Assembly (NCBI GenBank): GCA_046542505.1
Contig: JBKHBH010000032.1
Location: forward strand, 1 to 19,718
DNA length: 19,718 nucleotides
Source of the DNA: Thermovirgaceae bacterium
GTDB taxonomy: Bacteria; Synergistota; Synergistia; Synergistales; Thermovirgaceae
Reading direction: 5' to 3'
Part shown: piece by piece, positions 11,059 through 13,903 of the stretch
How the letters are laid out: each line of letters begins with the position of its first letter
How positions within the stretch are numbered: the first letter of the stretch is position 1
The notes under the pieces: model-generated
Told to the model about the DNA's origin: nothing
Seen by the model: the letters and a program-made list of their open reading frames with translations, nothing else
Database searches by the model: none
Translations under genes and position numbers: made by a program

Positions 11059-12105
11059 TCAGACAGTACCGGGAGGTATTTTGATCCGGCCCTCACCTTT
11101 CTGGAACAGGCCTATCTTTGCCGACCTGGTGAACCCCCGGGATCTGCAAAAAGCAAGCATAGCATCCGCCTGTTTTGCTTCTACTGCCAGCAAAAGGCCT
11201 CCCGAGGTCTGGGCGTCGAACAGAACGTCCGCCCTTTCCGGCGGAATCGTTTCGAGTCTGTCAACACGGCCCTCGTAAAGCTCCCTGTTCCGATAGCTTC
11301 CGGCGGGAACAAGGCCGATGGCGGCCTTTTCAGCCGCCCCAGGCAGAAGCGGAAGGGACGGAGCATCAAGAATCACGTCCAGTTCCTTTTCCGCCAGCAT
11401 GTCCAGAAGGTGTCCCGCAAAACCAAAACCTGTGACATCGGTACAGGCCGAAACGGCCCCGTACAAATCCTCCGGGAGGTGTCGAGGCAGGTCGTTCAGT
11501 GCCGTCATGGCCTTCACGGCGGCTTCCACCTCGCCGGGTTCGTCCATTTCGGCCTGGAGAGCCGTAATGATAATCCCCGTCCCCAGGGGCTTCGTCAGGA
11601 TCAGGGCATCACCGGGCCTGGCGCCCGTGACGCGCCAGATCCTGTCACGGTCAACCTCACCGTACACGGTGAGGCCATACTTCGGTTCTTCGTCCTCCAC
11701 GCTGTGCCCCCCGGCGAGTACCGCCCCCGCCGCAAGCACCCGTTCCTGTCCCCCCTTGAGGATATCCCGCAGGATCTCCACGGGCTGGCAATTCACGGGA
11801 AAACCCGCCACATTCAGGGCCACCACGGGAGTCCCGCCCATGGCGAAGACATCGCTCAGGGCGTTGGCCGCCGCGATCTGCCCGAAGACATACGGATCGT
11901 CCACCACGGGGGTGATGAAATCAAGGGTGAGAATGCCGGCCCGTTTTTCGTCAAGAATCCAGAGCGCCGCATCCTCGCCGTGCTCCCACCCGGCAAGAAG
12001 CCTGTCCCCGGCCGGAAGCACCAGGTCTTTCAGTATGGTCTCAAGGTCCGCCGGACCTATTTTCGCCGCTCACCCACTGGCATGAGAAAGTTCGGTCAAA
12101 CGCAT
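11059..12105 (-). CDS. selD: Selenide, water dikinase (selenophosphate synthetase), selenocysteine-containing; Sec12 = UGA at 12072-12070
   Basis: From ATG 12105 (AGGTGA RBS) the frame reads MRLTELSHASG-U-AAKIGPADL into the tracked ORF. Motifs DFITPVVDDP, AANALSDVFAMGG, LTKPLGTG, TDVTGFG and DAQTSGGLL. Confidence 0.96.
12044..12058 (-). promoter_or_regulatory. Bacterial SECIS element of selD
   Basis: Hairpin AGGUCC-GGC-GGACCU starts 11 nt after the UGA; its loop begins with G. Confidence 0.8.
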
Positions 12106-12218: not shown

Positions 12219-12440
12219 TTACTTTTTAAGTATGACCCTGAACCCGCCTTCGGGCAATTCCTCGGCTTCCACGGCCCAGCTTCTGCTTCCGGCGAAACGG
12301 CCCACGTTCATTCGTGACGTCATGGTGTCCACCAGAACGTGAATTTCGCCGGAAGAAACCTTTTCGATGGCTTTTTTCGTCTCCAACACAGGCTGGGGGC
12401 ACGAAAGCCCCCTAGCATCGACGATGATCGGTTCCGGCAT
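12219..12440 (-). CDS. TusA/SirA/YedF-family sulfur/selenium carrier protein
   Basis: 73 aa with DARGLSCPQP (CPxP); AAGGGTGA RBS; lies between yedE and selD. Confidence 0.9.
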   Translation of the reverse strand: MPEPIIVDARGLSCPQPVLETKKAIEKVSSGEIHVLVDTMTSRMNVGRFAGSRSWAVEAEELPEGGFRVILKK

Positions 12441-12469: not shown

Positions 12470-13561
12470 CTAAATCTTTTCGCGCATCAGAAACCCAACG
12501 ACAAGACAGAAAGCAAGACCGACAAAAACCCCGGCCGGGCCGTAGGCCCCAGGACCCGCCGGAGAACTTGCCATGCTGAAGTTATGGGCGATCCCGGCAC
12601 CAACGAGCATGCCGAGGATAAAGACTGCCGCGTCACCGTCACCTTCGCCGCTCATGATGAACTGCCGTCCTGGACATCCGCCCGCCAGGGTGAAGGCAAG
12701 ACCCGACAGGACCATTCCCATGGCGTTCCAGAGCACGTTCGTGTGGGCCACTGGCTGATCCTCGAAACCGAACCTGAACTGCCCCAGGATGAGATTGGTC
12801 ACCAGGGCTGCGGCAAGAAAGGCCATGACGCCGTTGAACAAATGTGCGTCCCTGAGCATGATCAGGTCGCGAAGGGCCCCCACAGTGCAAAAGCGGCTGC
12901 GCTGGGCCCACCAGCCGACGAGAAGTCCCACGGCAAGGGCGATGGCCACGGGGGCCGCCATGGCGCCAGGCCCCTTTTCGGAAAAGAATATTGCCGAAGT
13001 GCCCTCGGGGCCGAAACTCGGCTTTAGGATAACGAAAGCCAAAACCGTTACTGCCACGGCCGGCATGATGTACCCGGCGGCCTTTTTCACCGGATAGCTG
13101 CGGCCCAGGCTGAATCCGTTCCAGAGGAAAACTATGCCGATAGCGATTCCCGCCACCAGCCCGATGACACCCGGCAGGGCGTTCAGGTCGCCGGCACTCA
13201 GGCGGATGTAGGCCCGCCAGGGGCACCCGAGGAAGACCAGGGCCCCGATCATGGCGAACATGCCCAGAAAAAACCTGATGACAGGGGAGGAGCCTGTCCT
13301 TGGCCTGTACTCCCCGTAGGCAATGGAAGCGACGAATGACCCCAAAATGAACCCTGCAAGTTCCGGTCGAAGATACTGAACCACGCTAGCCCTGTGAAGC
13401 CCCAGGGCCCCGGCGATATCCCTGGCGAAGCAGGCGACACAGATCCCCATGTTTCCGGGGTTCCCCCAGTACGTCAAAAGCGGCGCGAGGATCCCGACGG
13501 CTGTCCCCGTCAGTATGGGCCCCATGCGGGACATGAGAAGACGGTTCAATGGCTGAAACAC
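12470..13561 (-). CDS. yedE: YedE-family putative selenium transporter (seleno-YedE type)
   Basis: GNPGNMGICVACFARDIAGALGLH, QYLRPE, LGCPWR, QRSRFC and GGCPGRQ; multiple TM helices. GTG 13561 follows AAAGGTGGGAG by 6 nt; ATG 13534 and 13525 lack an RBS. Confidence 0.9.
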   Translation of the reverse strand: MFQPLNRLLMSRMGPILTGTAVGILAPLLTYWGNPGNMGICVACFARDIAGALGLHRASVVQYLRPELAGFILGSFVASIAYGEYRPRTGSSPVIRFFLGMFAMIGALVFLGCPWRAYIRLSAGDLNALPGVIGLVAGIAIGIVFLWNGFSLGRSYPVKKAAGYIMPAVAVTVLAFVILKPSFGPEGTSAIFFSEKGPGAMAAPVAIALAVGLLVGWWAQRSRFCTVGALRDLIMLRDAHLFNGVMAFLAAALVTNLILGQFRFGFEDQPVAHTNVLWNAMGMVLSGLAFTLAGGCPGRQFIMSGEGDGDAAVFILGMLVGAGIAHNFSMASSPAGPGAYGPAGVFVGLAFCLVVGFLMREKI

Positions 13562-13565
13562 TAAA

Positions 13566-13703
13566 AACTCCCACCTTTCCCGAAGAGTGAATATGAAACG
13601 GTCCACCGGGCGGCGCACAAGGGCACCGCCGCATCACAAACAACATGCGGGCACGCTCCAAAGGTGCCGGTTCCCGTGGCGGCACTCCGGGAAAGCAGGA
13701 GTT
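13566..13703 (-). promoter_or_regulatory. Structured 5' leader domain able to sequester the yedE RBS
   Basis: 13703-13683 pairs with 13589-13566 (21 bp) and encloses three abutting hairpins at 13610-13668. Confidence 0.7.
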
Positions 13704-13732: not shown

Positions 13733-13903
13733 TCAGAGAAAGAGAGGGGAAAGGCTGAAGGAGTCCCCGCCCGAACCGCCTTGCTCCAATGGGGCAAAAG
13801 CATTGTCCCGTCGACCCGGAGTACCGGAAGCGCTGTCGCACCCCCAGGCGCGTGAATGCGGAACCCGCATTCCATCCGGGCCTCACCGGTATCTGCGTAC
13901 CAT
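13733..13903 (-). CDS. Putative selenocysteine leader peptide: MVRRYR-U..., 6 aa if UGA terminates, 56 aa on Sec readthrough
   Basis: AAGGAGG, 8 nt, ATG 13903; UGA at codon 7 (13885-13883); SECIS-like hairpin follows; next stop is UGA 13735-13733. Confidence 0.6.
13854..13872 (-). promoter_or_regulatory. SECIS-like hairpin in the leader uORF
   Basis: GAAUGCGG-GUU-CCGCAUUC begins 10 nt after the UGA; G-U starts the loop; lower stem CCCGG/CUGGG is possible. Confidence 0.65.

Follow-up and report, generated by a model that had tools for sequence, protein, structure and literature searches.

A helix predicted to mask the yedE Shine-Dalgarno sequence as a possible output of a putative selenocysteine-decoding leader in Thermovirgaceae

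In this article, I describe a leader RNA in front of a set of selenium genes in which a long helix is predicted to hide the Shine-Dalgarno (SD) sequence of yedE, and I propose, at roughly even odds (a probability of about 0.5), that this helix is the SD-sequestering OFF conformer of the expression platform of a selenocysteine (Sec)-decoding leader that controls the yedE-yedF-selD operon. The proposal is built on the helix itself, on a pairing between the SD and a distal partner that is conserved lineage by lineage, on a mini-ORF that ends in a UGA followed by a SECIS-type hairpin, on a reading frame that stays open past this UGA and, within the genus, on an alternative pairing for the strand that masks the SD. 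The window, that is the whole stretch of 19,718 nucleotides that was analysed (contig JBKHBH010000032.1 of the Thermovirgaceae assembly GCA_046542505.1), carries the leader and its operon on the minus strand, and all features given below lie on that strand.

The operon begins with yedE (12470-13561, GTG start), which encodes a putative selenium transporter that scores 498.8 bits against TIGR04112 seleno_YedE (cut-off 200). Whether its true start might lie elsewhere was checked by orthologue alignment, and GTG 13561 was confirmed, the aligned start codon being ATG in ten and GTG in one of the 11 orthologues L002-L012, each with a GGAAAGGUGG-like SD 5' of it. The next gene (12219-12440) encodes a small TusA/YedF-N-terminal-like protein of 73 aa with a Pfam TusA match of 63.6 bits and a score of 60.1 bits against TIGR03527 YedF, which is under the cut-off of 110 for that family. 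It is followed by selD (11059-12105; AIRS and AIRS_C domains), in which codon 12 is an in-frame UGA (12072-12070) with its own SECIS hairpin, AGGUCC-GGC-GGACCU, 11-12 nt 3' of it; this makes SelD a selenoprotein here, and genome G014 has the UGA and the hairpin as well. The genome also provides SelB, a tRNA-Sec (76.3 bits, cut-off 47) and two grdB genes (L256 and L257, on G000:C95 and C108) with a UGA after TSST, a frame that resumes behind it (GTCTRCGA...) and, in both, a hairpin with the apical loop GGC 21-23 nt from the UGA. Transcription may start from a candidate promoter of the extended -10 type (13975-13945), read from the sequence as TTGTCA (13975-13970), a 19-nt spacer and TG-n-TATCAT (TG at 13953-13952, TATCAT at 13950-13945), with TGTGGTATCAT shared with the sister species L003; a consensus promoter scan returned no promoters, the 19-nt spacer of the candidate lying outside the 16-18 range of that scan.

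The helix was first noticed in an initial annotation made from the letters alone, as 21 pairs between 13703-13683 (AACUCCUGCUUUCCCGGAGUG) and 13589-13566, and it holds base by base, with two G-U pairs (U13697-G13572 and G13696-U13573) and three bulged nucleotides (G13575, U13583 and U13584). Its 3' arm, the SD strand (13589-13566), recognised from the sequence, RNAfold and the orthologue alignment, includes the SD GGAAAGGUGGGAG (13580-13568), which lies 6 nt 5' of the GTG (13561-13559), and the claimed occlusion of the ribosome-binding site is thus borne out as far as pairing goes; its 5' arm is part of what I call the anti-SD strand (13706-13680), which folds and duplexes define as this arm together with the bases used in the alternative pairing described below. 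When 13710-13556 is folded with RNAfold, the minimum free energy (MFE) structure, at -65.7 kcal/mol, consists of this helix and three enclosed hairpins, correctly placed from the start at 13668-13650, 13649-13630 and 13629-13610, along with two short closing stems and a slight redrawing of the first hairpin, and 1 of 200 shuffled sequences was as stable (mean -53.65, sd 4.08, z -2.95). The same helix is retained when the 401-nt leader is folded. As a control from natural sequence, the 35-nt SD arm was paired with 957 non-cognate 244-nt stretches within the 19.7-kb window, and the cognate duplex energy of -31.6 was reached by 17 of them, six of which cover the arm in antisense; with these set aside, 11 of 951 remain, and judged alone the helix stands out at roughly the 1% level. 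Predicted folds, duplexes and the swap test described below all place the SD of the regulated gene in the grip of a distal strand, as in an attenuator. No RNA run is listed as carrying the locus; among DNA contigs, a low-depth (2x) variant from run X2 differs from the window at six positions (13695, 13706, 13708 and 13736-13738), one of which turns C13695 into U and keeps the pair with G13574 as a wobble, while the codon preceding the read-through stop is altered and the stop itself retained.

The three hairpins between the arms (13668-13610) had been read as a cloverleaf domain, and a four-way junction closed by an SD-holding helix in front of selenium genes is a common riboswitch layout, which would suggest an aptamer for a selenium compound or another metabolite. 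I consider this very improbable: the insert has no conservation beyond the genus, being unalignable outside it, the anti-SD strand lies anywhere between 67 and 189 nt from the start codon, alignment A1 has zero conserved columns in the insert, and L169 has about 40 nt where the window has three hairpins. The sister species L003 is the sole relative that keeps hairpins at the same places, with different sequences. No Rfam family matches the window (the sole hit by E-value is the Xanthine riboswitch, on the other strand, with 15.5 bits against a gathering score of 36), which leaves standing the initial suggestion of an unrecognised RNA motif, and ARAGORN finds no tRNA or tmRNA genes in the window. 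Since the insert is conserved neither in length nor in sequence, a ligand-binding or tRNA-like core is unlikely, and the three inner hairpins are best seen as variable filler that holds both arms together and has no role as a sensor.

A conserved part of the leader lies further upstream, with its SD about 340 nt 5' of yedE. It is a mini-ORF (13920-13883) made up of the SD GAAAGGAGG (13920-13912), an ATG (13903-13901), five more sense codons and a UGA (13885-13883), delimited from sequence and alignment; its SD, ATG and UGA are invariant across 23 aligned leaders from genomes and metagenomes, and the module is nearly invariant. Ten nt past the UGA, and about 270 nt 5' of the yedE SD, begins the SECIS-type hairpin GAAUGCGG-GUU-CCGCAUUC (13872-13854), so assigned from the conserved pairing and the loop position: all 160 of 160 cells are paired in 20 distinct leaders, with one pair changed from AU to GC in eight of them, and the apical loop stands at +21 to +23 from the U of the UGA, as in both grdB copies, and at +20 to +22 in selD. 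The loop letters are GUU or GUC in the leader versus GGC in the genome's three selenoprotein genes. The leader has several of the features expected of a bacterial SECIS element, namely a UGA in frame with its own SD and start, a hairpin at a fixed short distance 3' of it and a frame that continues beyond, and Sec is probably inserted at the mini-ORF UGA. The initial suggestion that the helix could be the expression platform of a Sec leader fits these results, as the helix shares a conserved leader with the UGA/SECIS mini-ORF.

A covariance model of this module (R1) has a single match in each of 16 genomes out of 151 from the order (10 of 18 genomes in family f1 and four of five in family f9), and a generic scan, which looked for an SD, a start, 2-13 codons, a stop, an 8-15 nt spacer and a hairpin and in which the stop codon was varied, extended the search to leaders of other sequence. 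Among 81 distinct yedE upstream regions the pattern occurred with TGA in 44, with TAA in none and with TAG in one, and among 40 further phylum-wide yedE loci (one or two per genus) with TGA in 15, TAA in one and TAG in none, a few of these hits probably being due to chance. Pooled, the UGA pattern lies 5' of 59 of 121 yedE loci, against one each for TAA and TAG. Of the window's open frames with 250 or more codons, genes and spurious antisense frames taken together, 11 end in TGA, six in TAG and four in TAA, and stop-codon usage therefore fails to explain the TGA skew. A degenerate DNA pattern of UGA and hairpin, run over the genome contigs, was discarded as too loose, as it hit 120 stretches with none beside yedE; its double match in L094 is a coding repeat.

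Other leader types came up as well. In the metagenome loci L191, L195, L199 and L211, Sec mini-ORFs of other sequence lie 60-160 nt 5' of yedE, and behind them stand GC-rich hairpins with runs of U, resembling intrinsic terminators; these look like the same sensor with a transcriptional output. A minimal type, found in L221, L225, L226, L285-L289, L292 and L294 (family f4 and metagenomes) 175-240 nt 5' of yedE, consists of AUG, one codon (GCG or ACG), UGA, about 12 nt and a hairpin, for example GGCUCG-UGUAC-CGAGUC or GGGUCCA-CGGUC-UGGACCU. In family f5 (L017, L018, L019 and L210) the mini-ORF is just 79-91 nt 5' of yedE, the SD-masking helix (UUUCCGAAAGAGGG with CCCUCUUUGGAAA) encloses the entire mini-ORF and includes the mini-ORF SD, and the read-through frame runs across the yedE start.

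In the window, the frame past the UGA (13882-13733) has 49 sense codons and ends at a UGA stop (13735-13733), as translation and the leader table show, and the NCBIfam search with the read-through peptide matched no families. Measured from the UGA to the arm, at least 76% of the distance is free of stops in this frame in 17 of 17 leaders, and in 12 of 34 cases in the other two frames, a count read off the leader table for related leaders and not a formal test. For 15 of 17 leaders its stop is reached 8-37 nt ahead of the anti-SD core. The exceptions are L157, where it lies 3 nt within, and L152, a metagenome contig that differs from L153 by one read-through indel; the shifted frame of L152 ends past the anti-SD strand, and the indel may be natural variation or else a fault of assembly. 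As the frame stops before the helix, ribosomes that read UGA as Sec would be more likely to promote the helix than to melt it, and this, together with an MFE structure in L003 that is not the helix at all (see below), does not favour the earlier idea that a ribosome unfolds the helix.

The rigid register of the window helix was tried as the conserved feature and rejected, as 58.7% of cells are paired (MAFFT alignment A2, model-based alignment A5), no more than in slid controls in which the partners were displaced by 1-3 columns. Bulges differ among lineages and the CU/GA-rich arms pair in many registers, and because the bulges are lineage-specific, alignment-free swap tests were used. The genus-level leaders that enter here represent three distinct lineages. 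For most of the 15 leaders folded, the MFE structure brings a distal CU-rich strand onto the SD region of the same leader, the SD is predicted to be mostly paired in 17 of 17 (unpaired probability 0.001-0.254), and in the swap test the SD arm paired with its own upstream region at a mean of -25.35 kcal/mol against -20.97 with those of 13 other leaders, a difference that 0 of 20000 permutations matched. To judge from these predicted pairings, lineages keep a distal CU-rich strand matched to their own SD region, whereas the exact helix is not conserved. Between yedE loci with and without a leader, the accessibility of the SD region differs no more than weakly (medians 0.22 versus 0.31, p 0.027, among loci that are not independent), which speaks against the proposal.

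The anti-SD strand has a second set of partners, and both lie inside the read-through frame. Partner 2a (CGGUACUCCGGG, 13826-13815), predicted from duplexes and folds, pairs with 13691-13680, and partner 2b (GGAGCAAGGCGGUUCGG, 13787-13771), predicted from duplexes, pairs with 13706-13692; in the MFE structure 2a pairs with 13881-13875, at the foot of the SECIS domain. In the window (L001), 2a and 2b together bind 13706-13680 at -39.7 kcal/mol (z -3.9, 150 shuffles), versus -31.6 for the duplex with the SD strand, and alternative pairings with different sequences that reach beyond the bases of the SD helix were found in L003 (-37.6, z -4.2), L002 (-28.7, z -2.9) and L005 (-26.7, z -2.7). In 11 of the 15 leaders tested the alternative pairing is not significant (z above -1.6), and in a swap test of 14 leaders, where 28 of 20000 permutations matched, the signal was driven by L001, L003, L002 and L005, with the own partner ranking 7-14 in subgroup B, L012, L157 and L169. 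If the modelled transcript ends ahead of the SD strand, the arm folds onto the read-through region in L001, L003, L002, L004, L006 and L012, and to some extent in L005. For the sister species L003 the ON-like state (-153.6) is the MFE, versus -149.9 for the OFF state, and in the window the helix state is favoured (OFF -151.7 versus ON-like -142.8). The initial annotation had yedE off by default until a ribosome or ligand unfolds the domain, and of this the sequestered SD stands, but the description is too simple for an anti-SD strand with an alternative partner. In vivo, the leader would switch between the two.

In L007, L009, L010 and L011 a motif located immediately 5' of the yedE SD recurs in the mini-ORF, in the codons GCC AAC CGG AGU, and CAACCGGAGU occurs twice in L010. 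Both copies of the motif can pair with the anti-SD CUCCGG, an arrangement that the direction of control preferred below leaves unexplained.

Another reading would have the helix as a constitutive element that damps yedE initiation or stabilises the mRNA, with the Sec mini-ORF serving a separate purpose, for example as a SelB operator, or acting on transcription only. The window helix is indeed the MFE in every modelled state, GC-rich leaders fold extensively regardless of function, and the shortage of significant alternative pairings just described is what a constitutive helix would give. I nevertheless regard it as unlikely, since it leaves aside that the arms co-vary by lineage, that the read-through frame is kept open and ends just 5' of the arm, and that L003 prefers the alternative conformer. 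It also sits poorly with genome G014 (L244, G014:C19, about 1490-1900), where yedE and yedF are lost down to a 14-codon remnant and the mini-ORF, the hairpin and the SD-masking helix are kept together directly 5' of selD(U).

If the helix is the OFF state of a switch, the mechanism could run as follows. Ribosomes would initiate at the strong mini-ORF SD and meet the UGA (13885-13883) and then the SECIS-type hairpin; when SelB and Sec-tRNA(Sec) are available, Sec would be inserted and 49 more codons translated up to the stop at 13735-13733, just short of the anti-SD strand, and this read-through traffic would keep 13826-13771 single-stranded, leaving 13706-13680 free for the SD strand (13589-13566) and yedE blocked. 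Where Sec is not inserted, translation would end at the UGA, and the anti-SD strand would pair with 13826-13815 and 13787-13771, which are transcribed ahead of the SD strand; this alternative pairing would form first during transcription and persist, the SD would stay open, and the genes for selenium uptake and activation would be made. The overall layout would be that of a four-strand, ribosome-mediated attenuator with negative feedback.

The selenium-replete state would then be OFF, a direction suggested by the stop that precedes the arm and the competing partner that lies inside the read-through frame, by the terminator of L195, which is the MFE solely when the read-through frame is masked, and by M. 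maripaludis, whose yedE transcript, in the portion of the source available, is up 5.28 log2-fold on selenium depletion (PMC11097638). The corresponding models of L199 and L211 form the terminator in every state and are therefore uninformative on direction. Masking the read-through frame pairs the arm with the SD strand over at least 10 nt in 14 of 16 leaders, an outcome that is nearly built into the mask, and in equilibrium folds with a ribosome placed over either the UGA or the stop of the read-through frame, SD accessibility showed no consistent change. Equilibrium in the ribosome-free window favours OFF by about 9 kcal/mol, and the ON state would therefore need kinetic trapping; findpath barriers of 34-68 kcal/mol are crude upper bounds. 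Two points do not fit negative feedback: in subgroup B the mini-ORF itself holds CCGGAG, a copy of the partner of the arm's CUCCGG, and selD needs Sec, so that induction under complete selenium lack would be futile.

The futility of selD expression without selenium speaks for the opposite direction, in which the same parts are used and Sec insertion turns the operon ON, a reading that I hold to be unlikely. It could work in one of two ways. The helix might set the read-through stop beside the yedE start, so that ribosomes open the helix or hand over by translational coupling, and in L002, L012 and L169 the stop is just 8-10 nt from the arm, a ribosome mask at the stop raised the SD unpaired probability in L002, L168, L007, L012 and L169, and the L152 indel takes the frame through the arm; but the same mask at the window's stop left the SD unchanged (0.149), and the stops that precede the arm in 15 of 17 leaders do so mostly by 18-37 nt, a distance from which a ribosome that terminates there could not open the helix. 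Alternatively, termination at the UGA might expose a C-rich, G-poor tract to Rho, with the result that selenium lack leaves no yedE transcript, and the stretch from stop to arm does have this composition (in the window C 0.36 and G 0.12; among the leaders, 11 of 14 have G no higher than 0.20), with a precedent in Treponema primitia fdhF, where, according to the accessible part of the report, selenium raises transcription past the Sec codon (PMC3892789). Against both versions, selenium lack induces, and does not repress, yedE in M. maripaludis (in the same excerpt of PMC11097638), and the arm's strong second partner in the read-through frame would have no role. The tract itself, CU-rich and G-poor over 77 nt (13765-13689), spans the read-through stop and the anti-SD strand and holds several anti-SD-like motifs; it may serve Rho as an entry site or hold further anti-SD strands in reserve.

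Returning to the attenuator with negative feedback, its layout has a close relative in the translational attenuation of ermC and cat, where a leader ORF, an SD-masking helix and an alternative partner in the leader are combined and the position of the ribosome decides. Here, too, a short leader ORF has its own SD, the downstream SD is predicted to be masked, and the masking strand may have a second partner in the leader, but the sensed event would be UGA recoding via a SECIS hairpin and SelB in place of drug-induced stalling, and the masking helix spans a variable insert of about 95 nt. In attenuators of the trpL type, as outlined in the part of PMC3892789 that was available, cognate codons in the leader ORF report the supply of charged tRNA, and the related yedE leaders with terminator hairpins after the mini-ORF (L191, L195, L199 and L211) resemble them; the window differs in that its output is SD sequestration, with no terminator-like site found by a scan of the leader strand, and in that sensing would depend on one UGA codon, which requires a structure and an elongation factor of its own.

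Similarly, the E. coli selAB 5'-UTR contains a SECIS-like hairpin (Thanbichler and Bock, 2002), described in an excerpt of PMC13449736 as an undecoded operator 3 nt from the selA SD. As far as that excerpt goes, both systems would use a SECIS-type hairpin in the leader of a selenium operon to couple expression to SelB/Sec-tRNA status, but the hairpin here (13872-13854) follows an in-frame mini-ORF UGA, lies about 270 nt from the yedE SD instead of directly beside it, and is accompanied by a separate masking helix. In T. primitia fdhF(Sec), selenium controls transcription via translational coupling, and the outcome at a UGA/SECIS site decides downstream expression as it would here, whereas the site there, in the available passages, is the enzyme gene's own Sec codon and the output is transcript elongation, in place of a dedicated leader (PMC3892789). 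The polycysteine leaderless short ORFs of mycobacteria, presented in the accessible text as cysteine-responsive attenuators, likewise place the sensed amino acid in a short upstream ORF that controls operon genes, although with another amino acid and without a recoding signal (bioRxiv 10.1101/834739). A full-text literature search, covering passages of main texts (including PMC5322559, PMC13188914, PMC11955535 and PMC3847290), turned up no account of a Sec leader 5' of yedE or selD. With respect to known attenuators, the novelty would lie in what is sensed, namely the recoding of a UGA by way of a SECIS hairpin. In broader terms, I think it somewhat more probable than not that the helix is one of several interchangeable outputs of widespread, hitherto undescribed "selenocysteine attenuators", whose output would be SD sequestration here and intrinsic terminators elsewhere, and whose input, the UGA/SECIS mini-ORF, would gauge the capacity for Sec insertion and set uptake by YedE and activation by SelD accordingly.

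Little is known of how bacteria regulate selenium uptake. Only a LysR-type regulator is proposed for it in the consulted portion of PMC5322559, and the passages available of PMC11097638 state that no dedicated selenium transporter is known. The output side of the leader, that is the helix, the competing partner and the placement of the read-through stop, makes the mechanism testable by a few point mutations. If the proposal is true, the leader would also offer a natural and portable reporter of SelB/SECIS activity, and for the bacteria that carry it, a Sec-decoding leader would be a direct cis-acting selenium sensor that ties the function of YedE, YedF and SelD to Sec status.
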